Assembly: GCA_965225855.1 (NCBI GenBank)
Contig: CBDDCK010000005.1
Span: 928,001 to 992,000 of the forward strand
Direction: 5' to 3'
DNA: 64,000 nucleotides
Origin: Spirochaetia bacterium
GTDB lineage: Bacteria; Spirochaetota; Spirochaetia; SP-2023
The notes beneath the pieces were generated by a model that searched no databases, had not been told where the DNA came from, and saw only the letters and a program-made list of their open reading frames with translations. The position numbers were made by a program, and so were the translations under genes. Positions 1-50,454 of this stretch are shown here, in pieces (positions within the stretch are counted from its first letter, which is position 1; every line of letters begins with the position of its first letter).

Positions 1-772
1 ATAGTTTGAAATATTTTCGTAAGTGTTTCTTCGGTGTTTCGCTGGCAATGCAGTGCAATAGCGCCAGTAAAGTGGTTTTGCCTGTGCTGTTCTTGCCCAA
101 AAATAAATTGATTTGGCCAAATTCCATCGCCAATTGTGGCAGGGCATATAGCCGGTCTAGCTCCAAACTCTGTATTTTTATCGGTTTAAAATCCTGCGGT
201 TTTACCAGCTTAGATTGGTATTCATGGCTTTTGTCCAGCATGGGGTAGTGATCGGATAGTTGATTTACTTTTCGGCTATCGGCCAAGGCTTGTTCGTACT
301 TTCCTTGTTTGGCATAGCATTCACTGCGATATAAATAGTAGAAAACCATAGCGTTTGGGTTTCTCTCTATCAATTGGTCGTACTCGGCAAGTGCGAGATT
401 CCACTGTTCTGTTCTTTCGTATAACAAGGCTCTATCAACATAGATCGACATATAGTCTGGGTTTAATTCAATTACTTTGTTGTAATTCTCTAAGGCTTTA
501 TCCCATTGTTCTTGCATTTGATATACATTACCTCGTTGATGATAAGCAGGTAAATAGTTTGGCTCTATCGCCAGGGCTTGGTTTAAATCTTGCAAAGATT
601 GCTCTAATTCCCCTAGGTATCTATAACTTATTGCTCTGCTGTTGTAGATTTCAGCATTGTGTGGTTCTAGTTCAATCGCCACGGTGTAGGCTGCAATAGC
701 CTCCGCGTCATTGCCTGCTTTTTGTCGCTTTTGCCCTCGATTGAAATGCTTTTTTGCTTCTTTATTTTTCAT
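1..772 (-). CDS. TPR + ABC/AAA ATPase fusion protein, runs off window start (paralogue of 8076..10190)
   Basis: Not in ORF track. Manual translation from ATG at 772: MKNKEAKKHFNRGQ..., ~5 TPRs, then KIQSLELDRLYALPQLAMEFGQINLFLGKNSTGKTT (Walker A), closely matching the 704-aa paralogue; GGAG upstream. Confidence 0.85.
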   Translation of the reverse strand, partial: MKNKEAKKHFNRGQKRQKAGNDAEAIAAYTVAIELEPHNAEIYNSRAISYRYLGELEQSLQDLNQALAIEPNYLPAYHQRGNVYQMQEQWDKALENYNKVIELNPDYMSIYVDRALLYERTEQWNLALAEYDQLIERNPNAMVFYYLYRSECYAKQGKYEQALADSRKVNQLSDHYPMLDKSHEYQSKLVKPQDFKPIKIQSLELDRLYALPQLAMEFGQINLFLGKNSTGKTTLLALLHCIASETPKKHLRKYFKL

Positions 773-794: not shown

Positions 795-2315
795 TTGATA
801 AACCGTTTATCAATGGTTTACGGACTCATTTTAACCGATTGGGATTCTAAAGGGTATAGACCCTTTAGCGGGGTTTCGGGCAGAGCCCCGGATATAATAG
901 TAAAGAGTAGGCTTGTCAATCGGTGGTAGTTGTATCATTTATCAATGGTTTACGGACTCATTTTAACCGATAGGGATTCTAAAGGGTTTAGACCCTTTAG
1001 CGGGGTTTGGGGCAGAGCCCCGAATATAGTAATAAAGAATAGGTTTGTCAATAGGTGGTAGTTGTATCATTTATCAATGGTTTACGGACTCATTCTAACC
1101 GATAGGGATTCTAAAGGGTTTAGACCCTTTAGCGGGGTTTGGGGCAGAGCCCCGAATATAATAGTAAAGAGCTGGTTTGTCAATAGGTGGTAGTTGTATC
1201 ATTTATCAATGGTTTACGGACTCATTTTAACCGATAGGGATTCTAAAGGGTTTAGACCCTTTAGCGGGGTTTGGGGCAGAGCCCCGAATATAGTAATAAA
1301 GAATAGGTTTGTCAATAGGTGGTAGTTGTATCATTTATCAATGGTTTACGGACTCATTCTAACCGATAGGGATTCTAAAGGGTTTAGACCCTTTAGCGGG
1401 GTTTGGGGCAGAGCCCCGAATATAGTAATAAAGAGTTAGCTTGTCAATCGCTGGTAGTTTTCCATATTGTCAACGATAGGGATTCTAAAGGGTCAAGACC
1501 CTTTAGCGGGGTTTGGGGCAGAGCCCCGAATATAAAAATAAATAGTTTACTTGTCAATAGGTGGTAGTTGTATCATTTATCAATGGTTTACGGACTCATT
1601 CTAACCGATAGGGATTCTAAAGGGTTTAGACCCTTTAGCGGGGTTTGGGGCAGAGCCCCGAATATAGTAATAAAGAGTTAGCTTGTCAATCGCTGGTAGT
1701 TTTCCATATTGTCAACGATAGGGATTCTAAAGGGTCAAGACCCTTTAGCGGGGTTTGGGGCAGAGCCCCGAATATAGTAATAAAGAGCTGGTTTGTCAAT
1801 CGCTGGTAGTTTTCCATATTGTCAACGATAGGGATTCTAAAGGGTTGCGACCCTTTAGCGGGGTTTGGGGCAGAGCCCCGAATATAATAGTAAAGAGCTG
1901 GTTTGTCAATAGGTGGTAGTTGTATCATTTATCAATGGTTTACGGACTCATTTTAACCGATAGGGATTCTAAAGGGTTGCGACCCTTTAGCGGGGTTTGG
2001 GGCAGAGTCCCGGATATAGTAATAAAGAGCTGGTTTGTCAATCGGTGGTAGTTGTATCATTTATCAATGGTTTACGGACTCATTCTAACCGATAGGGATT
2101 CTAAAGGGTTGCGACCCTTTAGCGGGGTTTGGGGCAGAGCCCCGGATATAGTAATAAAGAGCTGGTTTGTCAATCGGTGGTAGTTGTATCATTTATCAAT
2201 GGTTTACGGACTCATTTTAACCGATAGGGATTCTAAAGGGTTGCGACCCTTTAGCGGGGTTTGGGGCAGAGTCCCAAATATTACAATAAAGAGTAGGCTT
2301 GTCAATCGGTGGTAG
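795..2315 (-). repeat. Tandem array of 12 double-hairpin/promoter units (132-bp and 110-bp periods)
   Basis: Core gggattctaaagggtNNNNaccctttagcggggtttggggcagagcccc at 841, 973, 1105, 1237, 1369, 1479, 1611, 1721, 1831, 1963, 2095, 2227. Confidence 0.95.
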
Positions 2316-2787
2316 TACCGGTAATATTCAGTACTTCAGCTAAGCACTTTAGCAAATTCGATACTTCGGTAAGCCACAGAGTTAAGTTCCTTTGCCCTAT
2401 GCTGGTATTGCCACCGTGTGCAAGTTGATTGCGGTTTTTAATTAAAGCAGCTATGGCATCTTTGGTTTCTTGGGTTATTCTTTGCTTAAATGCTTGTTGT
2501 AATGGCTCTGTTATATCTCCTAACAATTGTGAGAGTACGTCAAACTTAAATGAGCTTTGGCGGCGCAAAATGCGCTTTTGCACTAACTGATTCAGTGATT
2601 CTCCCGAATTTTGTGCCACATACTGCAACAGGTATTGCTTGACAGACTGTTCATAGTGCGCACTGATACGAATGCAAAGATACTGGTTAAAGTCCCCTTG
2701 CAAGTCGACATCTTCTATAGCAGTAGACTTTTCTAGCTTTTGTTGTAAGCGATTATTGTTGGTGCTTATGTTGTAATCTGCTACCAT
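2302..2787 (-). CDS. HEPN-domain protein (RiboL-PSP/MAE_28990-like putative RNase)
   Basis: R-x4-H motif RNQLAH; N-terminal helix 'ISAHYEQSVK'; directly downstream of a DUF262 gene. Confidence 0.75.
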   Translation of the reverse strand: MVADYNISTNNNRLQQKLEKSTAIEDVDLQGDFNQYLCIRISAHYEQSVKQYLLQYVAQNSGESLNQLVQKRILRRQSSFKFDVLSQLLGDITEPLQQAFKQRITQETKDAIAALIKNRNQLAHGGNTSIGQRNLTLWLTEVSNLLKCLAEVLNITGTTTD

Positions 2788-2790
2788 AAT

Positions 2791-3906
2791 CTACAGTTTG
2801 GCAAAGGTTTGTTGTGCTAAGTCAAAGCGTTTATCTACATGGTTTTCGTCCGCTGTAGGGCCTTTACAGTATTCTTTGTATGTATTGTTCTGCAACAATT
2901 CATCGTATAATGTTTTGACTCTCTGTGGTTTAAGCTCTGTATTACTAGACAATTTGTGGGCCAACGCTACCATTACCGAATCAAAACAAGCTGCATTAAA
3001 GATTTTAAAAGGCCGAAAGGCTTTGTTTGGTTCACCGTTAAAAGCATCATAGACCAGCTTTATTGTGCGGCCAAATAACTGAAAGTCGATATTGCTACCG
3101 TCTTTATGTGCACTCATAAACTCGTTCATAAACTTTTTATATGGTGCTTTATAGTTTGCTCTGTTGTAGTAGTAGGCATAAAAACGCAGTATATATTCCT
3201 CATCTTTTTTGCGGTTATCTTCCTTGCCGTAGATGGCCCGCCAGTGCTGATTCTGGTTGAGTTGCTCGAGTTGATTGTTAAACTCACCCATATACATACA
3301 GGCCCTAAGCTCTTGGGGCGCCAATACCCGCCCGCTGGAATTGAGCCTTTCAAACACTAAGTAAATGCCACTCTGGCTGCGATCGGGTTTTTCTTGCTTT
3401 ACAACCGTAATATGTAGCATGGCATTGTCTAGCTTTCTTTGGTAGACATCCGCTAAGTCTTGGTATGTTTTACCATGAAGTGGGTTGCTTTTACCCAGTT
3501 GCAAGGCAAAACTTGTCGCTGGTTTTGTACCTGTAGGGAACTGATTGGCAAAGAATCCTTCAATGGTTTTTAGCCGTTGTTGGCCGTCAATTACCATAAA
3601 CTTTTCATCATTTGTTTTGGCTAAAAAGATGGTAGGGATAGGCAAATCCATCAATAGCGATTCTATAAATCGGGAAGCTTCGGCTTTATTCCAGACGTAG
3701 TTGCGTTGGTAGTTCGGTATAATAAACTCTTGCTTTTGTAGTTTTCTAACCAGAATCTCTACAGTAAAGTCCACCCCATACGTACTAATCTCATAATTAT
3801 ATCGTATATCTTCATTTTCTCCGCTTTCTTGTTCGGCTTGCAATTCCTGCTGTTCTGGTGTTAATCGATCACGAAAGTTATTGTCAATATCGCTTTCTTG
3901 GGACAT
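2791..3906 (-). CDS. DUF262 (GmrSD/ParB-like) protein
   Basis: IPNYQRNYVW, FIESLL..LPIP, VIDGQQRL, VFERLNSSG motifs. Confidence 0.9.
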   Translation of the reverse strand: MSQESDIDNNFRDRLTPEQQELQAEQESGENEDIRYNYEISTYGVDFTVEILVRKLQKQEFIIPNYQRNYVWNKAEASRFIESLLMDLPIPTIFLAKTNDEKFMVIDGQQRLKTIEGFFANQFPTGTKPATSFALQLGKSNPLHGKTYQDLADVYQRKLDNAMLHITVVKQEKPDRSQSGIYLVFERLNSSGRVLAPQELRACMYMGEFNNQLEQLNQNQHWRAIYGKEDNRKKDEEYILRFYAYYYNRANYKAPYKKFMNEFMSAHKDGSNIDFQLFGRTIKLVYDAFNGEPNKAFRPFKIFNAACFDSVMVALAHKLSSNTELKPQRVKTLYDELLQNNTYKEYCKGPTADENHVDKRFDLAQQTFAKL

Positions 3907-4069
3907 CGTATCCTCCTTTTATAAAGGGCAGAATAAACAAATAACTATTTGGGGTCAAACGAATGTAGAGTATAAATTCTATTTTTTGAGGTAGGGAAGT
4001 CTATTAAAAATAAACACTGAATCGGCCTAAATTAAATCCATTATCACCGATTTCTATCTTAGCTATCTA

Positions 4070-4541
4070 TAACATTATTTGGGGCTCTGCCCCAAACCCC
4101 GCGCAAGGGTCTATACCCTTGAGGATCCCAATCGTTGATTGTTTAAGTTACTCTTTGGCAACCTGTCTTTAATCATCACTTATTTTTACCCCAACTATCT
4201 ACTATATCATTCGGGGCTCTGCCCGAAACCCCGCGCAAGGGGTTATACCCTTTAGAATCCCAATAGTGCATAGTTTAAGTTACTCTTTGGCAATCTGTCT
4301 TTAATTATCACTTATTTTTACACCACTTATCTATAACATCATTCGGGGCTCTGCCCGAAACCCCGCGCAAGGGTCTATACCTTTTAGAATCCCAATCGGT
4401 TATAGTTTAAGTTACTCTTTGGCAATCTGTCTTTAATTATCACTTATTTTTACACCACTTATCTATAACATCATTCGGGGCTCTGCCCGAAACCCCGCGC
4501 AAGGGTATCTACCCTTTAGAATCCCAATCGTGTATAGTTTG
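4070..4541 (+). repeat. Array of 4 double-hairpin units, opposite orientation, 132-bp period
   Basis: ggggctctgccc(c/g)aaaccccgcgcaaggg...ccctt...atccc at 4081, 4213, 4345, 4477. Confidence 0.95.
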
Positions 4542-4623
4542 ACTGTTTGTTGGTGATAATCTATTGGTTGGTCTACTAGCAATAGATGGTCGATCATATA
4601 TTTTGTTAGCCTACAGAGTCAAG

Positions 4624-5202
4624 CTAGCTTGTTCCATTGTATGATAATTGCCCTTGTAAATGCTGGTTTACGGCCTCTATCAATGCCATTGAATGCTGAT
4701 ACATCTGCGAAATATCTTCCACGGTTAGCTGGCCTAGGTTTTGTTCTACGTAATTTTTATGGACAAGCTCATTGCGCTTATACCCCAATCTTATGAAAGA
4801 CTTGGCATAGCTCTCACTATAGCGATCGATACTTGTTAGTGATTCCATTTCTATATCTATGCTTTTTAGAAACCTATTAAAGCCACGTTGGTGTGGTTCT
4901 TTAAACTCAAACAGTTTATAAAACCCCCGATCGAAAACTTTAGTTTCTACTAGCTTAGTTAGGGAAGTAGTCTTGCTTGCATTTTGTAACCACTGTTTGA
5001 GCATTTCAATAAAGCAATGTTCGACATAACTAAAAGCAGAAATCACTAACGACTTACGCAGCTCTAGGTTTAGTTGGTTGGCATCGTCAAACTTCTCTTC
5101 AGCAGATAGAAATTCTTGTATTCTATGGCATAACTCTATCGATTGCTCTATTGAGCCCTTTGTTTGCATTGTTGTTTGTTGCATAAACTTATACTTTTGC
5201 AA
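4624..5202 (-). CDS. HEPN-domain protein
   Basis: RKSLVISAFSYVEH and RNELVH (R-x4-H); overlaps the upstream DUF262 stop. Confidence 0.75.
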   Translation of the reverse strand: MQKYKFMQQTTMQTKGSIEQSIELCHRIQEFLSAEEKFDDANQLNLELRKSLVISAFSYVEHCFIEMLKQWLQNASKTTSLTKLVETKVFDRGFYKLFEFKEPHQRGFNRFLKSIDIEMESLTSIDRYSESYAKSFIRLGYKRNELVHKNYVEQNLGQLTVEDISQMYQHSMALIEAVNQHLQGQLSYNGTS

Positions 5203-6361
5203 GAATATCTTTGGCAGTTTGTATGCGTTGTTCTACCAGTCCTTTGTTGGTAGTCGGTAGGTTGGTTTGTTGCAATCGCTGTTGAATAGTTTTCTTCAGC
5301 TGGTCAAACTGGGCTACTGTAATCGAGACTTGCACTTGCCCCTTGCAAGAAAGCTGGGCCCAAGCGGTAAACAATGCATCGAGTATCGTAACTAAAAATC
5401 TACCGTCATTACTTTTCAAGTTATAACTTTCTATGGGCTGGGTAAAGCTATTCAGAAAGTTAGCAAACATTTGTCTACACTCTGCAAGTTGTTCTTCGGT
5501 GAAGTCTTTTGTTGTTAGCGAAAAGGTATTGAGGAAACGTGCCATAGGTGGCTTGTATTCTTCGGCGTCAGCCAGAGCAAAACAACGCAACAAATACTCT
5601 ATATCTTTATAGTTGTTGTCGGGACTGTTTTGGCCTAACAACTTTTGCCATTGCGGTTTACGGTTTAGTTCATCGAGTAGTTGGTAAAACGGACCATCGA
5701 AAATCGATCGTCGTACTTCCTGGGGTGTTAGCTTAGTTCCACCAGTGTTTAAGCGCTTAAAGATTTCATACATCGAAGAAGCCTGATGTTCAGGTTTCGG
5801 ATCAAATTGAGTGATAGTGATAGTCCGCAGTGTTCGCATGTCGAATATCCATTGTTGTTTGATGCTTAGTTCGCTATACTTTATGCCATGCAAATCGTTC
5901 TTTTGTTCTACATTCGTTACTTTAGGGAGCTGCAAGCGGAAGTCTTCAAAGTATGTATTGTCATCAAATAGTTTGGGATCAATAAACTTGTAGCCTGCTT
6001 GTAGGGACTTTGACCGGATGGTGCCGTACTGATCTTTTCTGGGAAAGCGTTGTTTATAGAAAAAGTATATCGAAGATAGGCGCTGTTGGCCATCTATTAA
6101 CAATTGCTGTTTATTGTGTTCAAAGAGGAACAGCTGCGGTATCGGCAGCCCCATGATTAGCGATTCGATTAAAGAAGACGCTTGTTTTTTGTTCCACGTA
6201 AAGTTGCGTTGAAACGGTGGAATGGTGAATGAGCCTCGATCAATAAACTTTACTAAAGATTCAATATTCCAATCATTGGGTAGCGATCTTATATCATAAA
6301 CGGTTAATCCCGTTGCGTCATCCTCCTCTTCCTCTAATGGTTGTGCTTGATTTTCAGCCAT
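5189..6361 (-). CDS. DUF262 (GmrSD/ParB-like) protein
   Basis: IPPFQRNFTW, LIESLIMGLPIP, IDGQQRL, IFKRLNTGG. Confidence 0.9.
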   Translation of the reverse strand: MAENQAQPLEEEEDDATGLTVYDIRSLPNDWNIESLVKFIDRGSFTIPPFQRNFTWNKKQASSLIESLIMGLPIPQLFLFEHNKQQLLIDGQQRLSSIYFFYKQRFPRKDQYGTIRSKSLQAGYKFIDPKLFDDNTYFEDFRLQLPKVTNVEQKNDLHGIKYSELSIKQQWIFDMRTLRTITITQFDPKPEHQASSMYEIFKRLNTGGTKLTPQEVRRSIFDGPFYQLLDELNRKPQWQKLLGQNSPDNNYKDIEYLLRCFALADAEEYKPPMARFLNTFSLTTKDFTEEQLAECRQMFANFLNSFTQPIESYNLKSNDGRFLVTILDALFTAWAQLSCKGQVQVSITVAQFDQLKKTIQQRLQQTNLPTTNKGLVEQRIQTAKDILAKV

Positions 6362-6539
6362 AATGTCAACCTCCTCAATTGGTTTTTACCCGCTAGATTA
6401 TAGAAAAACACCGCCAGTTGTGCCATAACATGCTCTAAATTTTGTTGCATTTGCTTTCTGATACCCTACAGAAAGGCTGCCTATATATTTGAGTGATGGT
6501 AGATATTTGCACGATTGCCACTCCAACTATCCGCTATAG

Positions 6540-7420
6540 TATCTGGGGCGCTGCCCCAAACCCCGCGCAAGGGGTCTATACCCTTTAGAATCCCAATCGT
6601 GTATAGTTTAAGTTACTCTTTAGCAATCTGTCTTTGGCTTTCATTGATTTTTACCTTGACTACCTACAACATTATTCGGGGCGCTGCCCCAAACCCCGCG
6701 CAAGGGTCTATACCCTTGAGGATCCCAATTTGTTATAGTTTATCCGTAGACCATAAATAAATGATGAAACTATCAATGATGGACAAACCAATTATTTATT
6801 ATATTATTCGGGGCTCTGCCCCAAACCCCGCGCAAGGGTCTATACCCTTGAGGATCCCAATTTGTTATAGTTTATCCGTAGACCATAAATAAATGATGAA
6901 ACTATCAATGATGGACAAACCAATTATTTATTATATTATTCGGGGCGCTGCCCCAAACCCCGCGCAAGGGTCTATACCCTTGAGGATCCCAATTTGTTAT
7001 AGTTTATCCGTAGACCATAAATAAATGATGAAACTATCAATGATGGACAAACCAATTATTTATTATATTATTCGGGGCTCTGCCCCAAACCCCGCGCAAG
7101 GGTCTATACCCTTGAGGATCCCAATTTGTTATAGTTTATCCGTAGACCATAAATAAATGATGAAACTATCAATGATGGACAAACCAATTATTTATTATAT
7201 TATTCGGGGCTCTGCCCCAAACCCCGCGCAAGGGTCTATACCCTTGCGAATCCCAATTTGTTATAGTTTGTCTTATTGTTTGTTGCTCTGTCTTTGGCTT
7301 TCATTGATTTTTACCCCCACTACCTACTATATCAATCGGGGCTCTGCCCCAAACCCCGCGCAAGGGTCTATACCCTTACGAATCCCAATCGTGTATAGTT
7401 TGCTTGTCAATCGGTGGTAA
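6540..7420 (+). repeat. Array of 7 double-hairpin units, 132/133-bp period, two spacer types
   Basis: Cores at 6545, 6678, 6810, 6942, 7074, 7206, 7338. Confidence 0.95.
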
Positions 7421-7495
7421 TCTGACCAATACCCTACAATTTTCGATCGGTTGATCGATTAAATTGAGCCTTTTTTCCCACTATTTAGGAAATGC

Positions 7496-8083
7496 TTATC
7501 CATTTTCCAGGCTCAAGAATACATTGAGTTTTTCTTTGGCTAATTGCTGGTCGATTAGCTTAAATTCAAAAGGCAATCTGTCATTCATTATGGTTGTATA
7601 CTTGTTTATTTCCGTTTCAATATTCTTTTTCCAGTCATCAAACTGTTGTTGACCCTGTAGATCGTCTTTTACATAGTAAATGAAATACAAGCATACTCGT
7701 TGGGGTTGGTTGTGGATAAAGTTGTTATCAATGGTAAAATTCCATTGATGAGAAAAGGCCAATAGCAAGGTATCTAAAGCTTTCTTGATGATTTCTTGTA
7801 GCTGTTCTTGCTTATATTGCTTGATAATATGGCGTTTGATGTCTTTAATAGAATTGCCTTCTCCGATAATTCCTTGCCATTCCGTAATATCTCTTTGGTA
7901 TGCTTTGGGCTGGTATTCGGAAACTTCGACAAAATAAAACCACTGTTGTTTGCTATAGAAAAAGTCCATATCCTTTAATTTCCAATTGCTTCCCAGTTTG
8001 TCTTCCACTTTAAAGCAGTTGGTTTCATTTAGGTTTTCATCTTCAAACCTTACGGTTAATCGGCTTTCTGTAAACTCAATCAT
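7496..8083 (-). CDS. Hypothetical protein coupled to the ATPase; possible degenerate PD-(D/E)xK nuclease fold
   Basis: 8-bp overlap with ATPase stop; 'DMDFF...FYFVEVS' resembles a D...ExK motif with K>S. Confidence 0.6.
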   Translation of the reverse strand: MIEFTESRLTVRFEDENLNETNCFKVEDKLGSNWKLKDMDFFYSKQQWFYFVEVSEYQPKAYQRDITEWQGIIGEGNSIKDIKRHIIKQYKQEQLQEIIKKALDTLLLAFSHQWNFTIDNNFIHNQPQRVCLYFIYYVKDDLQGQQQFDDWKKNIETEINKYTTIMNDRLPFEFKLIDQQLAKEKLNVFLSLENG

Positions 8084-10190
8084 GCCACATTACCTCGTCA
8101 TAATGGTCATGCATCTCTAATGCTTCGGCCAATATCTCGTTATCTGGCACGCCGTCTTTAAGGTCATTGCAGATGTAACCTTGCTTAGTTAAGGCAAAAC
8201 AAAAGGCGCTTTGTTGGTTGCGTTTGCTGGCAATTACCAGTTCTTCTAGTACAAAAGAGCTGTGACTGGCGATGAATATTTGCACGCCTTTCGCCGCTAG
8301 TGCAGCCAAGATTTGCACAAACTGGCGCACGAAAGCGGGGTGAAGGTTGGCTTCGGCCTCGTCTATCAACAACACACTTTCACGAGTGATGCTGTGGTTT
8401 TCTAGCAATAAGCGCAGCAATTGCAGCTTTTTTATCCCTTCCGCTCCCTGCTCTAAGGGTATTGTTTCACCGCTAGCCAGTTTGTAACTAAATTCATTGC
8501 GGGGGCTAGATTTGCGATTGCGCTCTACCGATTCGCTGCCTTTGTAGTGTTGTTCAAAGCATTCCAGCAGGTTCTGTTGGCGATTGCTGAGCTGCTTATC
8601 TGGGCTATTGCGGAGCAACTTCTGGCAAGTTTGGCTATCAATAGCACTATATTCATGGGGTAGGGTGATTATGGCACGGTACAAACTCAATAGGCATTTG
8701 TCTGGGATAAACACAGGTTCAAATAAGGTTGTGCCTCTATGCGATTGGTTTGTGGTGCTGTTCCATTGCCATTGTTGCTGATAGCTTTGCAAAAATGCTT
8801 GGATATTGGCCTGCTCTATCACCGATAGTGCAAAGTGTTGTTGTAAATTTTGTTTGGGGTTGTCGCTGGCAATGCAGTGCAATACCTTCAATAAAGTGGT
8901 TTTGCCTGCACCATTTTTACCCAAAAATAAATTGAGTTGGCCAAACTCCATCGCCAATTGGGGTAGGGCATATAAGCGATTTAGCTCCAGCTTCTGTATT
9001 TTTCTTGGTTGGAAATCTTGTTGCTTTACTAGCTTTTCTTGGTATTCTCGTGCTTGTTGATCTATAAAAGGAAATCCCGGCATCAATTGGTTTACCTTGC
9101 GGTTATCGGCTAAAGCCAGTTCGTACTTCCCTTGTTGTGCATATAGCATGCTGCGGTTCATGTAGGCTACTGCATTGGTTTTGTCTAATTCAATCGCTTG
9201 GTTGAAGTCTAACAGAGCCTGATCTTCTTGCCCTTGTTCTGCGTATAGTGCCCCACGATTGCCATAGGCATCTGCATAGTCTCGGTTTAATTCAATCGCT
9301 TTATGGTAATCTTCCAGAGCCTGCTCCCATTGCCCTCTTTCTGTATATAATAGGCCTCGGTTATAGTAAGCTGCAACATTGCCCAACTCAATCGCTTTGT
9401 TGTAGTCTAACAGAGCCTTATCTGTTTGCCCTTGTTCTGCGTATAATACCCCACGATTGCCATAGGCATCTGCATAATCTGGCTGTAACTCAATTGCTTG
9501 GTCGTAGTCTTTCAAAGCCTTATCCGTTTGCCCTTGCTTTTTATATAATACACCTCGGTTGTTGTAAGCTGTAACATTGCCCAACTCAATCGCTTGGTTG
9601 TAGTCTTCCAGTGCCTTATCTTCTTGCCCTTGTTTTTGGTATAGGTTTCCACGATTGCCATAGGCATCTGCATAGTCTCGGTTTAATTCAATCGCTTTAT
9701 GGTAATCTTTTAGAGCCTCATGCCATTGCCCATGTTTTCGATATAAGTTGCCTCGGTTGTTGTAAGATTCAACATTACCCAACTCAATCGCTTGGTTGTA
9801 GTCTAACAGAGCCTTATCTTCTTGCCTTTGTTCTGCGTATAGTACTCCACGATTGCCATAGGCTGCTGCATTGTCTGGCTGTAATTCAATCGCTTGGTCG
9901 TAATCTTTTAGTGCTTGATCCAGTAGTCCTTGTTCCCGATATAGATTGCCTCGGTTATAATAAGCTGTAGCATTGTTTGGTCTTATCGCAATGATTTCGT
10001 CATAATCTCCCAAGGATTTTTCCCATAAACCTAGGTTTTTGTATAAGTTTCCTCGGTTGCTGTAGGCTTCAATACATTTATTGTCTAGCTCAATAGCCTT
10101 GGTGTAGGCTTCAATGGCCGCCTCTATGTTCCCTGTTTTTTGGTAGTTTTCTCCCTGTTCAAAGTAGGCTTTTGCTTCTGGGTTTGGCAT
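8076..10190 (-). CDS. 11-TPR array fused to ABC-type (AAA_15/AAA_21-like) ATPase
   Basis: AYxNRG repeats; Walker A GKNGAGKT, AEG signature, Walker B LLIDEAE, NLHP, H-loop IASHS. Confidence 0.9.
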   Translation of the reverse strand: MPNPEAKAYFEQGENYQKTGNIEAAIEAYTKAIELDNKCIEAYSNRGNLYKNLGLWEKSLGDYDEIIAIRPNNATAYYNRGNLYREQGLLDQALKDYDQAIELQPDNAAAYGNRGVLYAEQRQEDKALLDYNQAIELGNVESYNNRGNLYRKHGQWHEALKDYHKAIELNRDYADAYGNRGNLYQKQGQEDKALEDYNQAIELGNVTAYNNRGVLYKKQGQTDKALKDYDQAIELQPDYADAYGNRGVLYAEQGQTDKALLDYNKAIELGNVAAYYNRGLLYTERGQWEQALEDYHKAIELNRDYADAYGNRGALYAEQGQEDQALLDFNQAIELDKTNAVAYMNRSMLYAQQGKYELALADNRKVNQLMPGFPFIDQQAREYQEKLVKQQDFQPRKIQKLELNRLYALPQLAMEFGQLNLFLGKNGAGKTTLLKVLHCIASDNPKQNLQQHFALSVIEQANIQAFLQSYQQQWQWNSTTNQSHRGTTLFEPVFIPDKCLLSLYRAIITLPHEYSAIDSQTCQKLLRNSPDKQLSNRQQNLLECFEQHYKGSESVERNRKSSPRNEFSYKLASGETIPLEQGAEGIKKLQLLRLLLENHSITRESVLLIDEAEANLHPAFVRQFVQILAALAAKGVQIFIASHSSFVLEELVIASKRNQQSAFCFALTKQGYICNDLKDGVPDNEILAEALEMHDHYDEVMWHD

Positions 10191-10214
10191 GGTGTGTCTC
10201 CTGTCTTTACTATA

Positions 10215-10345
10215 GATAAACCGTTTATCAACGGTTTACGGAATCATTCTAACCGATTGGGATTCTAAAGGGTCGAGACCCTTTAGCGGGGTTTGGGGCA
10301 GAGCCCCGAATATTATCATAAATAGTTTACTTGTCAATCATTGAT
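10215..10345 (-). repeat. Single double-hairpin unit directly upstream of the TPR-ATPase gene
   Basis: Same core near 10259-10308 with TTGACA on the minus strand. Confidence 0.9.
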
Positions 10346-10413
10346 ATTTCCATCATTTATTTATGGTTTTTAGTTTTTCAATAGTGTATAGTATCTAGTA
10401 GAATAGCTAATAG

Positions 10414-13272
10414 TTATTCGGTTTTAACCTTATTGTCGCTGGGTTTGTCGGTTGTTTGGGCCTGGTGTTTGTGTTTATAATGCTCTGCCAATTCTGCATG
10501 CACCCAGTCTTTTACCTTTAATCTTAGCTTGGTTCTGTGTTCATATTGCGGCAATTCATACAAGCTCAAATGCAATTTCTGCACAAATTCCGTTTGCTCT
10601 GTCTGCTTGTAATGGTCCACCATTACGGGAATATGCTGGGCTATCAATGCTTTGTGCTGGTAGAATTGCCGTTTTCTTTTAGCCGTAAGGTAGCGGCTTG
10701 TATGTAAAACCATCCAGTAGATAAACAAGGTATAAAACGGGGTGAGGGCCAACAATATATAAAGGCCTTGCCATATAACTATGACTAATATCCCAATAGT
10801 TACCGCAGTAATAGTCAAAATCCCCTTATGTTCAAGTTTAAAGAAATTGAATACCGCTTCAATCTTTGCCAGTGCTTCCTTCTCTTCTCTTTGAAACTCT
10901 TCCTTTTTATCGCTAAAACCTTGATGTAGTTCTTCTTTAAGAACCTTTGCTAGTTGCTGTTTCTGTTGCTCTATCTTGCCTAAACTATTTATATTATCCA
11001 CAGCTTTAAGGTATAAGTCTTTGGCTTGTTCAATATTTTTCTCTAGCTTTTCTTTGGCAAAGTCTTGGGCTTTTTGCCAAATTTTTCTGGCAGAATCTCT
11101 CCGGTTATCGGCTAATTCTTGCTCTGCCCATTGGCTATATAAGATGCTAAGATTAGTCCAAGCTAGAACATCATCTGGCTGTAATTCAATCGCTTGGTCG
11201 TAGTCTTTCAGAGCTTTATCCAGTTGCCCTTGCTTTTCATATAATCGGCCTCGGTTATAGTAGGCTGTAACATTGCCCAACTCAATCGCTTTGTTGTAGT
11301 CTTCGAGTGCTTTATCTGGTTGCCCTTGTTCTTCGTATAGGTTTCCACGATTGCCATAGGCTTCTGCAAAGTCTGGGTTTAATTCAATCGCTTGGTCGTA
11401 GTCTTTCAGAGCTTTATCCAGTTGCCCTTGCTTTTCATATAATCGGCCTCGGTTATAGTAGGCTGTAACATTGCCCAACTCAATCGCTTTGTTGTAGTCT
11501 TCGAGTGCTTTATCTGGTTGCCCTTGTTCTTCGTATAGGTTTCCACGATTGCCATAGGCATCTGCATCATCTGGCTGTAACTCAATCGCTTTGTTGTAAT
11601 CTTTTAGTGCCTTATCCAGTTGCCCTTGCTTTTTATATAGATTGCCTCGGTTGTTGTAAGCTGTAACACTGCCCAGCTCAATCGCTTGGTTGTAGTCTAA
11701 CAGAGCCTTATCTTCTTGCCCTTGTTCTGCGTATAGTACTCCACGATTGCCATAGGCATCTGCATCATCTGGCTGTAATTCAATGGCTTGGTCGTAATCT
11801 TTTAGAGCCTCATGCCATTGTTTTTGCTTTTGATATAGATTGCCTCGGTTGTTGTAAACGTCAACATCGCCCAACTCAATCGCTTGGTTGTAGTCTTCCA
11901 GTGCCTTATCTGGTTGCCCTTGTTCTGCGTATAATACCCCACGATTGCCATAGGCTGCTGCAAAGTCTGGCTGTAATTCAATGGCTTTATCGTAGTCTTT
12001 TAGTGCTTGATCCAGTAGCCCTTGTTCTGCATATAATAGGCCTCGGTTATAGTAGGCTGTAACATTGCCCAGCTCAATCGCTTGGTTGTAGTCTAACAGA
12101 GCCTTATCTTGTTGCCCTTGTTCTGCGTATAATACCCCACGATTGCCATAGGCATCTGCAAAGTCTGGCTGTAATTCAATCGCTTGGTCGTAATCTTTTA
12201 GAGCCTCATGCCATTGTTTTTGTTTTTGATATAATCGGCCTCGGTTATAGTAGGCTGCAACACCGCCCAACTCAATCGCTTGGTTGTAGTCTAAAAGTCC
12301 CTTATCTTCTTGCCCTTGTTCTGCGTATAATACCCCACGACTCACATAGGCATCTACAAAGTCTGGCTTTAATTCAATTGCTTTGTTGTAATCTTCCAGG
12401 ACTTTATCCGTTTGCCCTTGCTTTTGATATAGATTGCCTCGGTTATAGTAGGCTTCAATATAGCCCAACTCAATTGCTTGGTTGTGGTCTAATAGAGCCT
12501 GATCCCATTGCCCTTTTTTTACGTATAGCACTCCACGATTCGTATAGGCTTCTGCAAAGTCTCGGTTTAACTCAATCGCTTTGTTGTAATCTTCCAGGGC
12601 TTTATCCGTTTGCCCTTGCTTTTGATATAGATTGCCTCGGTTATAGTAAGCTTCAACATTGCCCAACTCAATCGCTTGGTTGTAGTCTAACAGAGCCTGA
12701 TCTTCTTGCCCTTGTTCTGCGTATAGGTTTCCACGATTCGCATAGGCTTCTGTAAAGTTTGGCCTTAATTCAATCGCTTTATGGTAATCTTCCAGAGCTT
12801 TATCTGGTTGCCCTTGCTTTTCATATAATACACCTCGGTTGTTGTAAGCTGCAACATTGCCCAACTCAATCGCTTGGTTGAAGTCTAAAAGTGCCTTATC
12901 TGTTTGCCCTTGTTCTGCGTATAATACCCCACGATTGCCATAGGCATCTGCATAGTCTGGCTGTAATTCAATCGCTTGGTCGTAATCTTTTAGTGCTTGA
13001 TCCGATAGCCCTTGTTTTTGATATAGATTGCCTCGGTTGTAATAAGTTATAGCATTGGTTGGCTCTATCGCAATGGCTTTGTTGTAATCAACCATGGCTT
13101 CGGCCCATTTTCCTATTTCTCTATATAAGATTGCTCGGTTGTTATAGGCTTTAATACATTTATTGTCTAGCTCAATAGCTAGGGCATAGGCCTCAATGGC
13201 CGCCTTTATATTTCTTACTTCTTGGTGGTTTTCCCCCTGTTCAAAGTAGGCTTTTGCTTCTGGGTTTATCAT
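10414..13272 (-). CDS. ~22-TPR array protein with C-terminal coiled coil and two TM helices
   Basis: Alternating 34/31-aa TPRs; hydrophobic segments GILTITAVTIGILVIVIW and LYILLALTPFYTLFIYWMVL. Confidence 0.85.
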   Translation of the reverse strand: MINPEAKAYFEQGENHQEVRNIKAAIEAYALAIELDNKCIKAYNNRAILYREIGKWAEAMVDYNKAIAIEPTNAITYYNRGNLYQKQGLSDQALKDYDQAIELQPDYADAYGNRGVLYAEQGQTDKALLDFNQAIELGNVAAYNNRGVLYEKQGQPDKALEDYHKAIELRPNFTEAYANRGNLYAEQGQEDQALLDYNQAIELGNVEAYYNRGNLYQKQGQTDKALEDYNKAIELNRDFAEAYTNRGVLYVKKGQWDQALLDHNQAIELGYIEAYYNRGNLYQKQGQTDKVLEDYNKAIELKPDFVDAYVSRGVLYAEQGQEDKGLLDYNQAIELGGVAAYYNRGRLYQKQKQWHEALKDYDQAIELQPDFADAYGNRGVLYAEQGQQDKALLDYNQAIELGNVTAYYNRGLLYAEQGLLDQALKDYDKAIELQPDFAAAYGNRGVLYAEQGQPDKALEDYNQAIELGDVDVYNNRGNLYQKQKQWHEALKDYDQAIELQPDDADAYGNRGVLYAEQGQEDKALLDYNQAIELGSVTAYNNRGNLYKKQGQLDKALKDYNKAIELQPDDADAYGNRGNLYEEQGQPDKALEDYNKAIELGNVTAYYNRGRLYEKQGQLDKALKDYDQAIELNPDFAEAYGNRGNLYEEQGQPDKALEDYNKAIELGNVTAYYNRGRLYEKQGQLDKALKDYDQAIELQPDDVLAWTNLSILYSQWAEQELADNRRDSARKIWQKAQDFAKEKLEKNIEQAKDLYLKAVDNINSLGKIEQQKQQLAKVLKEELHQGFSDKKEEFQREEKEALAKIEAVFNFFKLEHKGILTITAVTIGILVIVIWQGLYILLALTPFYTLFIYWMVLHTSRYLTAKRKRQFYQHKALIAQHIPVMVDHYKQTEQTEFVQKLHLSLYELPQYEHRTKLRLKVKDWVHAELAEHYKHKHQAQTTDKPSDNKVKTE

Positions 13273-13295
13273 GATGTGTCTCCTGTTGTTATGAT

Positions 13296-13870
13296 AGATA
13301 AACCGTTTATCAACGGTTTACGGACTAATTTTAACCGATTGGGATTCTAAAGGGTATAGACCCTTTAGCGGGGTTTGGGGCAGAGCCCCAGATATTATAA
13401 TAAAGAGTTGTTTTGTCAATCATTGATAGATAAACCGTTTATCAACGGTTTACGGACTAACTCTAACCGATTGGGATTCTAAAGGGTCGAGACCCTTTAG
13501 CGGGGTTTGGGGCAGAGCCCCAGATATTATAATAAAGAGTTGTTTTGTCAATCATTGATAGATAAACCGTTTATCAACGGTTTACGGACTAACTCTAACC
13601 GATTGGGATTCTAAAGGGTCGAGACCCTTTAGCGGGGTTTGGGGCAGAGCCCCAGATATTATAATAAATAGTTAGCTTGTCCATCATTGATAGTTTTATC
13701 ATTTATTTATGGTTTTTAGTTTTTCAATAGTGCATAGTTTCTTTTATTGTTTAGGAATTTAACCCTTATTATCCATTATTCCCACCCAACCTATCTGCTA
13801 TATCAATTGGGGCTCTGCCCCAAACCCCGCACAAGGGTATATACCCTTGAGGATCCCAATAGTGCATAGT
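13296..13870. repeat. Three minus-oriented units (132-bp period) plus one plus-oriented unit
   Basis: Cores at 13341, 13473, 13605; inverted core at ~13809-13860. Confidence 0.9.
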
Positions 13871-13872
13871 TA

Positions 13873-16800
13873 TTATTTTTCTTGATGATTCTTTGCTTCC
13901 TTTTCCAGCATTTCCAGTAGCTCTACCGTCTGTAGGCTGACCGTGATTACACGACAAACCAAGTCGATAATGGCTTCTTTGTGCTCGGCAAAGCTAAAGG
14001 CAGGGACTAACTCTGCAATGGTCGGGTCTTTAATCTTTAGGGCTTGACGGTAGCGTTCCAGTGGCCAATCTATCGCACTTCGGTTGCCTAGGCGGTAACT
14101 CCAAGCGATAGTCGGAATGTTTGTTAGCGTGGTTTGGTTGTCGATTCGTATCGTTCCATTGGCAGAATCGCTTTTTAGTTTGGGCAACAATACCAATTCT
14201 GGTTCTGCTTGCTGTGGTTCTTCGCTTGGGCTATCACTGAATAAAGGCCCGTCAATCGCTTTTTTCTTTTGGGGCTTTTTACTATTTGCTTCTTCTCTTT
14301 GGCAAGTAAACGGTTCTACTGTGGCAAAGTTTATATGCAATTCTGCCAATTGTTGGCCGATACTCTGGTAATGAGCAAAGTCTTCTTTAGTAGACCCCAA
14401 CAACGGCATTCGTGGAAAGCTGCGCTTCAAATCTACGGCATACTTCTCGCGATAGCTCGATAAATGCAACACAGCATAGCAATAGTGCCAGATACTTTCG
14501 GCCATAATGGCCTCGTCTTTGTAGTGTTCTCTAAACTTCTTTAAACCATACTCGGTAACATTGCTGCGCTTTTCGCCTTCTTTTGTCCAGTAATATAGTG
14601 GTATACATTGGCTGTCTCCAGTTGCATGTAAATCGACAATCGTATCGCTTGCCAGTGTTTGAAAGTCTTTAGCTGTACCGGGTGCAGCTAAACAAAGGTA
14701 GATATTTGGTTGTTCTTTGCGCCATATCTGCGGCCATTGATAGGTCATCGAATTAAAATTCTTGTCGTAGTACAGGTGCATTGTAGTAAAGGGGCGGTAC
14801 AAACACAACACAATCTGTTCTTGGTTATAGCTTTTGGTTATGCCTCTTTTCAGGTATTTGTTTAGCTCTCTATCCCATTTAATGCTTTGTTTATCGCTGG
14901 TTTTGCCCTCTAAAGTCTGTTGATATACCTTGCTAAAGTACTGCATCTTGGTTTGTAAATCGTCTATATCAAAATCATAAACCCATTCATCTCGCTGGCT
15001 CTTTAACCCATTAGAAAAGGTTTTGAATAAAGGAGTTTCTCCTTTTGCCGTTGCTTTGCCTTCTTTGACTTGCTTATTAATAATAGGAATCAAGCTATGC
15101 CAATCGTTATCGGTTTGCTGTAGCCAATGGTTTTGTTTACTGGGCACAATCTGCCTAAAGTCTATTTTATCTATGGGATTGCCTTGCAACCAAGCTAACT
15201 TTTGCCCTTTCGTCCATTCATCTTCTACGCTTGTGTAGTGTAAAGTAGTGCTTTGTAGCTCTGAATCTCGCACGAAAAACAGAATACTTACGCCTACCAT
15301 AATATCAAATACATTGCCTACTGCCGTTCCCTTTCCACCAGAGGTGCGCACATTACCGCCCAGATCGACAATATAAATCCGTTGAAAGTCCTGCATAACA
15401 CAGCTACGCAAACCGTCCAAAGCCATTGCATCAATAAAACTTCTGTTGCATACAAAGGCCACAATTCCGTTATTTTTAAGGCGATCACTGGCATAACGCA
15501 CAAAGCGAATGTACATATCATAAAGCTGGTTTTTGTTTTGTGCGCTTCCTTGCTTGGCGTAAGTTTGTTTAATTCTTTGGTCAATAAAAGGGTACTTTCG
15601 GTTAGAGTTTTGGTCATTGTAGCTTATTTGTTTGGCATTATACGGCGGGTTACCGATGATCAAACTAATATTCTTGTTGTTTTGTTCGGCGATTCTCTCG
15701 GCATTTGTGCTAGAAAGTCCAAACAACTCTAAGCGATTGTTGGGGGCATTCGTGCCTAGGGCTTCGGTATTGTCTAGGGTATCGGCAAAGCATAAACCGC
15801 TAAATTCTTTATATTCTTTCATCTTTTGTTGGTATGTGTATTCTATATTCAAGGCGGCAATGTAGTAAGGAAGTATCGCCACTTCATTGGCATGTAGCTC
15901 GTGTTCATACTTATATTGTAGGCTTTCCTTTGGCAGTTTCTCTATCAGTTCGCAAATGAATGTGCCCGTACCTGTGGCAGGGTCTAGGATTTCCACGCCT
16001 GGACTGCCCAAGGTTTTGCCAAAGTGTTCGGCCAACAAATGGTTAGAACTGTCTATCATAAAGTCGACAATCTCGGTGGGAGTGTACACAACTCCCAGCC
16101 GATCTGCCATCTTCGGGTTATACGCCTTGTAGAAACTCTCATAAACTGCCTTCAAGAATTTCTGCTTCTCATGGTGATCTTCAATCTGTTTAGCGTGCGC
16201 ACTCAAGGTAGAATAGTAGTGTTCTATGTTGCTAAGTAGGCGCATGCGTTCGGCTCTACTTAGGAAAGTCGCCACCAATGTTTCCAATTGTTGGCCTATG
16301 TTGTTACTGCGGTGGAATCTTGTATCGCTGAAAATACTACTGAATAGCTCTTCTGTAAGTACGTGTTGTACCAACATCTCATCTATATCATGCGTGGTAA
16401 TTTCTTTGTTTATCGTCTGTTTACAAGTTTCATAAAAGCGATTGTGTTCCTCTCTAAAGCCGATATTTTCCTTGTGTTGTTGCTGTACTAGCTCCACAAA
16501 GTGCGCAGCTATCTGGGGAATATCGGCGGTAAACTGTTCTAAAGCCGCTTGAAATTCCTTTACCTCTGGTGGAGTGTAGGCGGTAAACTGCAGCAATAAC
16601 TGGTGCAGTTTGTGCTTATCGCTAAACGAAACTCGGCCATATTCTTGGCTATTCTGGTACAGAATCGCCTGCATACTGTCTTCAAATAGAATGTTGTTTC
16701 TGGGGTATCCTTTGGCAAACTTTACTTGAATCTCTTTGTCTATGTCGTCTTTCGAGTCCTTACTTTCCCAAAAGCCAAAGTCTAAACGCAAGGCATTCTT

Positions 16801-16998
16801 TAGCGTTCCGTCCGGCCTTGGGCTCTTGTTTCGTGCTTTGTGGGGCAGTTCCCGCACTAAAAACAGGTTTTGTTTGTCCGCATAATGGTTGATCAAACGC
16901 TCAAAGCAACTCTTGATCTGCTCTTCATTGCGGCTGCCTCCGTACTGTATCACCTTGTCGCGTTCACTTAAATAGGTTTCAATCTGCGCTATACTCAT
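13873..16998 (-). CDS. Single-polypeptide restriction-modification enzyme (type IIG / type ISP-like, no helicase)
   Basis: N-terminal RPDG...FWESK nuclease motif; VYTPTEIV, LDPATGTGTF, IGNPPY N6-MTase motifs; ISP-type C-terminal region (YRPF, FPRMP). Confidence 0.85.
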   Translation of the reverse strand: MSIAQIETYLSERDKVIQYGGSRNEEQIKSCFERLINHYADKQNLFLVRELPHKARNKSPRPDGTLKNALRLDFGFWESKDSKDDIDKEIQVKFAKGYPRNNILFEDSMQAILYQNSQEYGRVSFSDKHKLHQLLLQFTAYTPPEVKEFQAALEQFTADIPQIAAHFVELVQQQHKENIGFREEHNRFYETCKQTINKEITTHDIDEMLVQHVLTEELFSSIFSDTRFHRSNNIGQQLETLVATFLSRAERMRLLSNIEHYYSTLSAHAKQIEDHHEKQKFLKAVYESFYKAYNPKMADRLGVVYTPTEIVDFMIDSSNHLLAEHFGKTLGSPGVEILDPATGTGTFICELIEKLPKESLQYKYEHELHANEVAILPYYIAALNIEYTYQQKMKEYKEFSGLCFADTLDNTEALGTNAPNNRLELFGLSSTNAERIAEQNNKNISLIIGNPPYNAKQISYNDQNSNRKYPFIDQRIKQTYAKQGSAQNKNQLYDMYIRFVRYASDRLKNNGIVAFVCNRSFIDAMALDGLRSCVMQDFQRIYIVDLGGNVRTSGGKGTAVGNVFDIMVGVSILFFVRDSELQSTTLHYTSVEDEWTKGQKLAWLQGNPIDKIDFRQIVPSKQNHWLQQTDNDWHSLIPIINKQVKEGKATAKGETPLFKTFSNGLKSQRDEWVYDFDIDDLQTKMQYFSKVYQQTLEGKTSDKQSIKWDRELNKYLKRGITKSYNQEQIVLCLYRPFTTMHLYYDKNFNSMTYQWPQIWRKEQPNIYLCLAAPGTAKDFQTLASDTIVDLHATGDSQCIPLYYWTKEGEKRSNVTEYGLKKFREHYKDEAIMAESIWHYCYAVLHLSSYREKYAVDLKRSFPRMPLLGSTKEDFAHYQSIGQQLAELHINFATVEPFTCQREEANSKKPQKKKAIDGPLFSDSPSEEPQQAEPELVLLPKLKSDSANGTIRIDNQTTLTNIPTIAWSYRLGNRSAIDWPLERYRQALKIKDPTIAELVPAFSFAEHKEAIIDLVCRVITVSLQTVELLEMLEKEAKNHQEK

Positions 16999-18558: not shown

Positions 18559-18631
18559 TGCCACCGGTGAGAATCGAACTCACGACACAGGGATTTTCAG
18601 TCCCTTGCTCTACCGACTGAGCTACAGCGGC
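18559..18631 (-). tRNA. tRNA-Phe(GAA), CCA not encoded
   Basis: GCCGCTGTAGCTCAGTCGGTAGAGCAAGGGACTGAAAATCCCTGTGTCGTGAGTTCGATTCTCACCGGTGGCA folds as a cloverleaf with anticodon GAA. Confidence 0.95.
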
Positions 18632-18641: not shown

Positions 18642-18690
18642 TGCAGGGAATATATTGCTGTGCTCTACCTTTGTCAATATATTCCCTGCA
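18642..18690 (-). promoter_or_regulatory. sigma70 promoter of tRNA-Phe inside a 16-bp inverted repeat
   Basis: TTGACA (18677-18672), 17 bp, TATATT (18654-18649); arms tgcagggaatatattg / caatatattccctgca. Confidence 0.7.
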
Positions 18691-31613: not shown

Positions 31614-31811
31614 ATGTATAAGCACAAACTACTTTTATTGCCTGTAGCTTGGCTATTGGCTTTTATGGCCTTTCCCTGCGCCCCACCCGATGACGATAAG
31701 CCATCTTCTGGGCCGTCTGGGCCGACTATTAATAAGGCCATCTACGATGTTGGCACGGCTCTGCTAACTTTACAAGGTACTTACTTAGGTAGTGCGACCC
31801 AAATCTATTGA
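31614..31811 (+). pseudogene. Truncated paralogue of the modular lipoprotein
   Basis: Same leader and signal peptide as 32469 and 50265 genes; stops at a tandem repeat after ~65 aa. Confidence 0.8.
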
Positions 31812-31975
31812 TAGAATTACCTCTCACCTATTGATAGAATTGACTTAAATCTATTGATAGAATTACCTCTCACCTATTGATAGAATTGACCTAAATCTAT
31901 CAATAGAATTACCTCCCACCTATTAATAGAATTGACCTAAATCTATCAATAGATTTACCTCCCACCTATTGATAC
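31801..31975. repeat. ~3.8 x 46-bp tandem repeat of palindromic CTATTGATAG boxes
   Basis: aaatctattgatagaattacctctcacctattgatagaattgactt at 31801, 31847, 31893, 31939. Confidence 0.85.
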
Positions 31976-32187: not shown

Positions 32188-32468
32188 CCAACCAAAGGCT
32201 GGAACAGACAAGCCACAAACACCCAGGCTTATACAAATTTTTACCCCAGTAGTCTCAAATAATTTATTGGCTACTAAGCAACGTATTTGCCTACAACACT
32301 AAGATACAAAAAAAGTGCCCAAACATAGAAAAAGCACAAAAAAACTTACAAAAAGCTTACAAAAAGCTTATATGGGCCTTGACGCAACACCCCCCCTAGC
32401 AAAATAGGGATTTACAGACTAGCCCGTATGGGTTGGCTAATCTTTATCCATTTTTGGAGGTATTGCTT

Positions 32469-34840: not shown

Positions 34841-35048
34841 ATCAATTATAGCCTGGGTATGGAGAAAATACCAAGGCTAAAACAACCAAGCTAAAACGTT
34901 GGCATAAAAATTAAGAGAGTCTCTTAATGCCCAACAACAGAATTTCTTAATACCCAATAAGAGATTCTCTTAATAAGAGACTTTCTTAATAACTAACAAC
35001 AATTTTTTGTAACAAGATAAACTTTGGCCAAGCCTTGGTAAGTTTTTA

Positions 35049-47717: not shown

Positions 47718-47960
47718 AAAATCTCTTGTTAGGTATTAAGAAAATCTCTTGTTAGGTATTAAGAAAATCTCTTGTTAGGTATTAAGAAAATCTCTTGTTA
47801 GGTATTAAGAGACTCTATTATTGGGCATTAAGAAATTCTCTTGTTAGTTATTAAGAAATTCTCTTGTTAGTTATTAAGAAAATCTCTTGTTAGGTATTAA
47901 GAAAATCTCTTGTTAGGTATTAAGAGAATCTCTTGTTAGGTATTAAGAGAATCTCTTAAT
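47718..47960. repeat. ~10.5 x 23-bp tandem repeat
   Basis: aaaatctcttgttaggtattaag; shorter degenerate inverted counterpart at ~34910-35005. Confidence 0.9.
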
Positions 47961-50265: not shown

Positions 50266-50454
50266 AAGCAATACCTCCAACAAGGGATAAAGATTGGCCA
50301 ACCCATACGGGCTAGTCTGTAAATCCCCATTTTGCTAGGGGGGGTGTTGCGTCAAGGCCTATACAAGCTTTTTGTAAGTTTTTTTATGTTTGGGCACTTT
50401 TTTTGTGTGTTAGTGTTGTAAGGTGGTTCAAAATCCATGCCAATCAAAAGGCTT

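Follow-up and report, generated by a model that had tools for sequence, protein, structure and literature searches.

The window, meaning the whole 64,000-nucleotide stretch analysed here, carries one 13-kb defence island whose genes all lie on the minus strand. At the left end is a gene for a TPR-AAA ATPase (2..772), which continues past the window edge and is followed by a small partner gene and a further paralogue. Array A (806..2316, minus strand), which would feed this gene, consists of twelve tandem units delimited with TRF, each made of promoter boxes, a 52-bp double-hairpin core and a tail. A palindrome at 795..813 lies between its last unit and the ribosome-binding site; palindromes of this type precede the ribosome-binding sites of all three TPR operons (also those of the genes at 10190 and 13272) and may represent a candidate operator or leader hairpin.

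Upstream of array A are a GmrSD_N (DUF262) and HEPN gene pair (2302..3906, minus strand), PD-T4-2/NsnA-like by domain matches, whose HEPN gene ends in a stop codon shared in part with the first TTGACA in the array; array B (4063..4540, plus strand), four inverted units of period 132 that carry no -35 box; a second GmrSD_N and HEPN pair with domain matches of the same PD-T4-2/NsnA-like kind (4624..6361, minus strand); and array C (6515..7420, plus strand), seven inverted units with periods of 133 and then five times 132, four of which retain TGGACA-16-TATTAT directed against the island genes. Farther along are a TPR-AAA ATPase with a HEC-02A-like C-terminal part, together with a small partner that weakly matches HEC-02B (7496..10190, minus strand), and upstream of this ATPase gene a single sense unit with TTGACA-16-TAATAT, core and palindrome (10214..10337, minus strand). 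These are followed by a long TPR protein whose C-terminal segment is hydrophobic (10414..13272, minus strand), by array D (13292..13693, minus strand; three sense units of period 132) and by a single inverted core (13809..13860, plus strand) directly beyond the gene of a type ISP/IIG restriction-modification enzyme (13873..16998, minus strand). The operon downstream of array A is likely to be an anti-phage operon.

At the left island edge (15829-16527 of locus L001), an HU-type DNA-binding domain is fused to a DUF4469 Ig-like domain, and this protein is a candidate for binding either the repeats or the palindrome. Elsewhere in the window, a gene that we take to be metE-like is duplicated (25926-28079 versus 18757-21045), the second copy matching to about residue 550 and then continuing into an unrelated Q/E-rich tail. 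Arrays of 23-bp units at 31796-31974, 34916-34992, 47718-47957 and 50742-50856 adjoin two paralogous lipoprotein-like genes (32433-34757 and 48172-50301) that have internal repeats of 363-366 bp.

Cores and tandem units of the island

The genome (2.71 Mb, 94% complete) holds 28 cores in total, all of them at window positions 838-13860, where they occupy six operon boundaries in both orientations. This count, first given by a sequence-only reading of the locus, holds: a covariance model of the 28 found no 29th in the genome, the next match reaching 19 bits against 78-98 for the cores (150 of 1240 candidates were scored). A tandem two-core pattern matched 19 times in the window and never in 100 shuffles. 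Sixteen cores are on the minus strand and face the island genes (12, 3 and 1), twelve are inverted on the plus strand (7, 4 and 1), and each of the three TPR operons with a start in the window is preceded by sense units (12, 1 and 3 copies, respectively). Core-to-core intervals (n = 22) measure 132 bp in 18 cases, 110 bp in three and 133 bp in one. The parts between cores align gap-free at 71-80% identity among the A, C and D types, while B-type parts show 38-52% identity to the other types (39-46% for A versus B), with about 27-30% for shifted alignments. Within array A these parts are 94% identical, and are therefore not unique spacers of the CRISPR type.

The cores of array A start at 2275, 2143, 2011, 1879, 1769, 1659, 1527, 1417, 1285, 1153, 1021 and 889 on the minus strand, with eight periods of 132 bp and three of 110 bp. 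In each unit, TTGACA is followed by a spacer, a -10 box, one further base and the core. A recount on the minus strand bears out the pattern that had been read from the sequence: TTGACA is present in 12 of 12 units, the spacer varies in sequence and is exactly 17 nt long in each, and the -10 box reads TATATT in eight, TATATC in three and AATATT in one. In an example unit (1287..1315, minus strand), the 17-bp spacer separates a -35 box at 1310-1315 from a -10 box at 1287-1292, and the start would fall near 1280. Hairpin 1 of this unit (1273..1285) has a 5-bp G/C stem, which reaches 8 bp on the plus strand via T.G wobble, and a 3-nt loop, and hairpin 2 (1243..1264) has a 9-bp stem and a variable 4-nt loop with no U-tract 3' of it. 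Since the 12 units comprise 10 distinct haplotypes and 141 of the 168 contigs of the best-matching sequencing run, which may be the source sample, fall on the region at 99% identity or more, array A is no assembly echo.

The stem of hairpin 2 is invariant in array A (0 of 18 columns vary among the 12 units) and its loop takes four forms (CTAA in five, CGCA in four, CTTG in two and CTAT in one). The reported loop variation on a kept stem is thus borne out, except that the CTCG loop is restricted to cores outside array A (10307, 13521 and 13653). A GGGGC-TCT-GCCCC hairpin 1 had been described after every -10 box; the core does begin one base downstream of the box, but the stem is mismatched in 3 of 12 units (2275, 2011 and 889). 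Likewise, the compensatory change is real but partial, because several of the 24 distinct core rows leave the pairs open: pair 32/50 is C-G in six rows and unpaired in five, and pair 31/51 is compensated in two and unpaired in nine.

The earlier conclusion that selection acts on both promoter and structure is not borne out by array A itself: among the full periods, conservation of the -35 box (0 of 6 columns variable) and of the stems (0 of 18) does not exceed that of the unstructured tail (2 of 59; P = 1). It is the spacer that differs from the tail, with 10 of 17 columns variable versus 2 of 59 (P = 1e-6). Furthermore, 38 of 66 informative site pairs across the eight full periods fail the four-gamete test, indicating that the units are mosaics. 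Spacer blocks recur in arrays 9-12 kb apart, spacer and loop alleles are common to arrays at distances of up to 12 kb, and an identical flank precedes the forward unit at 2310 and the inverted unit at 7420.

The island also occurs in a sequencing run from another study (X4), which derives from a strain of about 93-95% likeness, and there the gene order around array B is unchanged. One contig of this run joins a sense unit to the 2310/7420 flank (depth about 2); in addition, array B has gained about 23 bp relative to the window and the end of the HEPN gene differs, both in single contigs at a depth of about 2. A minor contig of a further run (X1) places a unit before the type ISP gene. We rejected as gene rearrangements the X4 joints 7225 to 4537 and 6508 to 4063, which are explained by repeat alleles mapped to the wrong copy, and 1686 to 13243, which is probably a short chance match.

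Promoter boxes and predicted transcription

The tRNA-Phe gene of the window (18559-18631) provides an internal reference, as its promoter (18649..18677, minus strand) is TTGACA-17-TATATT, with the same boxes as in array A, in agreement with the sequence-only reading. A sigma70 consensus scan allowing 16-18 bp passed 9 of the 12 array A units, eight of them matching at 11 of 12 letters; the units that failed are the three with TATATC, among them the gene-proximal unit, in which the final T of the -10 box is missing. Over all cores, the scan passed 13 of the 16 sense copies and 5 of the 12 inverted ones; five inverted copies, with TGGACA or TTGCCA, still score 9-10 of 12. Exact TTGACA is found in 15 of 16 gene-facing copies and in 0 of the 12 facing away, a comparison that comprises few independent lineages. 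Moreover, -10 boxes have been recreated at 16 or 17 bp, with different letters in different arrays. Because the boxes resemble those of tRNA-Phe and TTGACA is found in the gene-facing copies, it is plausible that array A acts as a promoter bank for the TPR-ATPase gene, tuning by copy number being conjecture.

Array A resembles tandem sigma70 promoters of the rRNA/tRNA type, in which G/C-rich discriminators have effects, both in its near-consensus boxes and in the G/C run directly after the -10 box. It differs in that twelve promoters stand in series, that a palindrome overlaps each and that the series would have arisen by repeat amplification.

According to PMC5730371, transcription most often starts 7 bp beyond the -10 box. 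In array A this position is in the loop of hairpin 1 and GGGGC begins at 2 bp, so that a start at GGGGC is geometrically unlikely. With the predicted start in this loop, the RNA would keep only hairpin 2. No terminator or U-tract was found at any unit on either strand, and transcripts would therefore pass through downstream units into the TPR-ATPase gene. Stacked read-through transcription from array A is likely on this prediction.

A double-hairpin repeat family across phyla

Judged by its sequence, the core belongs to a widespread family of REP-like double-hairpin repeats that extends over many phyla and small DNA viruses. An exact 21-letter pattern matched 86 viral loci and a looser pattern at least 127. 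The tandem two-core pattern occurs at no fewer than 109 loci in genomes of many phyla, including Streptomyces, Vicinamibacterales, Bacteroidales, Clostridia, Fusobacterium, Magnetococcales and Ktedonobacteraceae, and at none in viral contigs. Five genomes with tandem pairs contain 205, 97, 18, 15 and 5 copies. Within the same phylum, 22 of 301 genomes match, and 21 of these belong to one genus (21 of its 35 genomes), where the copies are dispersed, single and intergenic. In the AT-rich genus g71 (L383-L402), the core sits within a larger element that is dispersed. In most of its copies a TATAAT, TATAGT or TATATT box is separated from the core by a single base, as in the present island, but there is no -35 box.

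Among 51 ORFs beside tandem pairs, taken from loci of at most 62% G+C, 32 have a Pfam match and 19 have none; one match is a defence gene and the remaining matches are housekeeping genes. Tandem pairs also occur inside operons, for example nuoF-nuoG and ilvN-ilvC. The possibility, raised at the outset, that the core is a genome-wide REP-like element with no enrichment at defence genes is accordingly true of other genomes, whereas in the present genome the core is confined to 13 kb.

A scan of viral neighbours (88 of 117 ORFs, with near-duplicates and some loci left out) found ssDNA-virus hallmark genes at 11 loci and transposase domains at four. The core lies 3' of the scaffold gene in three microvirus-like contigs (L020, L038 and L073), two of which (L038 and L073) have it 5' of the Rep gene. 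Cores in L003, L017, L031 and L062 are near IS30-like, IS3 and IS110 transposase genes, possibly within IS ends. A BLAST search of plasmids returned 43 short matches, intergenic or unannotated, none of which covers 80%. We discarded a single match in genome G016 as chance, because it breaks the stem and equals the control count. Rfam yielded only tRNA in the window, nothing real for the core at E 10, and nothing on the core in 20 family loci. In the accessible portions of article text, supplements being outside the scope, no description of the element was found; one match to the motif string is a palindrome in a torque teno mini virus.

The promoter is a local addition and not a feature of the family: a promoter-like site occupies the same place in 1 of 247 dereplicated family contexts, and promoter-plus-core was found at 0 loci in viral contigs and at five single loci in metagenomes. 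Closer to home, no core accompanies the TPR-ATPase paralogue that lies 1.6 kb to the left of the window. Of three congeners, one has a single core, and another (G002) shares the gene types but lacks a core in five 20-kb regions. G002 also has a different palindromic tandem array, with periods of 183 and 127, between restriction- or defence-like genes (L381 2814-3605). In congener G003 the single core (L090 1470-1550) is preceded by a third small hairpin, and the gene downstream presumably resembles a Mu-type portal.

The pairing of the hairpins favours the strand opposite to that of the core as written. The outer pair of hairpin 1 covaries across the 247 contexts, which derive from 451 copies (T-A in 126, C-G in 104), and a second hairpin is found in 113 of 336 distinct contexts versus 29 when shuffled, with 85 different arms; these family counts are not phylogenetically independent, and the search patterns fix part of the stem. 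The opposite-strand triloop is GNA in 97 of 247 contexts and purine-N-A in 172, whereas on the strand as written GNA occurs in four. In PMC13037366, GNA loops closed by C-G are described as a stable DNA mini-hairpin at phage priming sites and N4 promoters, and GNA alone is reported there to form it. The opposite-strand loops of the window are AGA in 25 cores and AGC in three, not GNA, so that the argument for DNA folding rests on the wider family.

Furthermore, 21 of 28 window cores have a C.A as written that corresponds to a T.G wobble on the other strand, and hairpin 2 in family contexts has 11 A.C versus 3 G.T mismatches as written, again favouring the opposite strand. Folding energy is lower on that strand for 28 of 28 cores as RNA and for 24 of 28 as DNA; the energies pick the strand but do not separate RNA from DNA. 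At 10 of the 11 loci that have hallmark genes of ssDNA viruses, this better-pairing strand is the coding one; the virion strand of ssDNA phages is, however, of mRNA sense as well. Collectively, these results suggest that the folded strand probably lies opposite the promoter transcript and that the molecule is probably single-stranded DNA. Known DNA mini-hairpins (G4 ori, RSF1010 ssiA and the N4 vRNAP promoter) have in common with the family the C-G-closed GNA triloop, which in ssDNA viruses is on the coding strand next to Rep genes. Unlike them, the copies here have AGA or AGC loops and are chromosomal, multicopy and unpolarised with replication. An apparent replichore bias was dismissed, as it came from strand-uneven sets of matches; complete subsets give no consistent direction relative to dnaA (left 16 plus and 19 minus, right 7 and 19 in G066; left 2 and 5, right 6 and 1 in G067; left 7 and 16, right 10 and 4 in G068). 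In G061, the loop variants TTT and TTC lie 23 times on the plus and three times on the minus strand over the whole chromosome, within a subset of 26 matches.

As with REP, BIME and REPIN elements and their RAYT transposases, family members are short intergenic palindromes, single or in tandem mosaics, that have housekeeping neighbours, reach up to hundreds per genome and are patchy among lineages (REP and RAYT features as given in PMC3733652 and PMC6006769, including the GTAG/GTGG and CGTC tags). By contrast, flank frequencies reveal only a pyrimidine at -1 and neither of these tags at the base of the stem; the core sequence is kept across phyla rather than being species-specific, and there are two hairpins with a fixed linker. 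Here, in addition, the repeat is fused to a promoter and confined to 13 kb, and no Y1 (RAYT) transposase was found in the 94% complete genome. Among five other copy-bearing genomes, three have no Y1 transposase and two have a Y1 match.

Origin and role of the arrays

We favour, with moderate confidence, the reading that the array is recombining DNA in which a REP-like repeat is combined with a captured promoter, and that its outcome is read-through into the TPR-ATPase gene rather than small RNAs. The repeat would have entered the island beside a TPR-gene promoter; repeat and flanks would then have spread by homologous recombination, inversion and short-patch gene conversion, and unequal exchange would have amplified the 132-bp promoter-hairpin unit. 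Sense copies would have kept TTGACA because they transcribe operons. Up to nine of the twelve array A promoters may add up, each predicted to start inside hairpin 1 with only hairpin 2 entering the new RNA, and the repeat itself could be a selfish or a domesticated DNA element. Drift does not obviously explain a near-constant interval of 132 bp (18 of 22) despite 39-46% identity between arrays A and B, and this favoured reading does not explain why the periods are fixed at 132 and 110, why the spacer is hypervariable or why the element is confined to one island.

It is possible, although we consider it unlikely, that an undescribed cross-phylum ssDNA signal composed of a 6-bp stem, a purine-N-A triloop, a fixed linker and a second hairpin has been domesticated here as an integrase-free dial of defence expression, with spacers and 11-bp-phased periods under selection. 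Such a signal would be common to the Rep regions of ssDNA phages, IS ends and chromosomes, and would act as a handle that moves, inverts and multiplies the promoter module at operon boundaries.

We assign a similarly small chance to the main rival, a selected promoter bank, in which copy number and spacer alleles would set or vary the dose of the TPR-ATPase operon in the manner of a contingency system and the hairpins would serve as a recombination handle or as a supercoiling-sensitive switch over the start site. The restriction of exact TTGACA to sense copies, the -10 boxes remade by different letters across arrays, the sense units before all three TPR operons, a spacer hypervariable at fixed length and periods of 132 and 110 that are both multiples of 11 argue for such a bank. 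However, the promoterless inverted arrays are equally amplified (4 and 7 copies), the weakest -10 box is in the gene-proximal unit, the paralogue left of the window and the congener homologues have no unit, and the tandem pairs of the family elsewhere form without promoters.

The sequence-only reading had also proposed a multicopy small-RNA cassette, an antitoxin or decoy by analogy to type III TA systems, which would serve the HEPN or ATPase systems; we consider this improbable. Each unit does have promoter boxes and two foldable hairpins (folding z of -2.1 to -3.5 in four sense 66-mers), HEPN and AAA-ATPase defence genes adjoin, and, as in ToxIN, CptIN and TenpIN, tandem non-coding repeats lie directly 5' of a possibly toxic gene. 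Yet the predicted start falls within hairpin 1, neither strand has a terminator, pairing is better on the other strand, and the element is dispensable, as the same systems exist without it in the congener and the paralogue. In type III TA arrays, tandem repeats are followed by a terminator before the toxin gene and the transcript is processed to unit-length RNAs. Here, in contrast, there is one promoter per unit and no terminator before the gene, no Rfam match to ToxI, CptI or TenpI and no pseudoknot-type repeat, no ToxN-type Pfam family among the island proteins, and the downstream gene is of the TPR-AAA type, not ToxN, CptN or TenpN.

Integron attC sites have R and L boxes, an unpaired spacer of about 5 nt and an extrahelical base. 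That the cores are sites of the attC type for ssDNA recombination in an integron-like cassette array, whose recombinase would be distant or lost, is highly improbable: no integron integrase was found in the genome (best 65 bits against a cut-off of 265), which has two tyrosine recombinases, and gene order around array B is unchanged in the second strain. The cores, highly conserved in sequence, lie in both orientations (16 minus, 12 plus) and in gene-less tandem runs (12, 7, 4 and 3), and their spacers measure 3 and 2 nt versus the 5 or so of attC. By eye, a few of the inverted copies bear a partial likeness to attC, as their outer inverted repeat ends in TAAC...GTT and leaves a C unpaired, but the sense units lack this repeat. 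In favour of this reading, the cores stand at six consecutive operon boundaries, a pattern that attC-like motifs show (Weinberg et al., PMC5737381, in its section 23), and, like attC/CALIN sites and the DUF1874 motif of that paper, they are structured elements in consecutive intergenic regions of a defence cluster.

The chance is slight that the cores are live signals for ssDNA priming or replication restart kept from a phage or plasmid origin. The family does occur near Rep genes in ssDNA viruses (11 loci), and mini-hairpins mark G4 and ssiA priming sites (PMC13037366); against this, three complete chromosomes show no consistent replichore polarity, both orientations occur here and no REP_ORF2-G2P or other Rep protein was found in the genome. 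Finally, a 35-residue peptide encoded by each 132-bp unit is scarcely credible, for although the period is a multiple of 3 and several variants are synonymous in one frame, no frame has a synonymous excess (best P 0.23-0.37), and 2 of 12 array A units have stops within them and others have no start.

If the array were only the drift of a selfish repeat, it would be a modest variant of the REP/BIME type. The repeat family is nevertheless kept in sequence and pairing across phyla and ssDNA viruses, with no Rfam entry and no description found in the portions of the literature covered, and identifying its reader protein would extend the known ssDNA signals by a new class. The island offers a natural case of a repeat bringing a promoter into a defence island, and makes copy-number tuning of defence expression testable.
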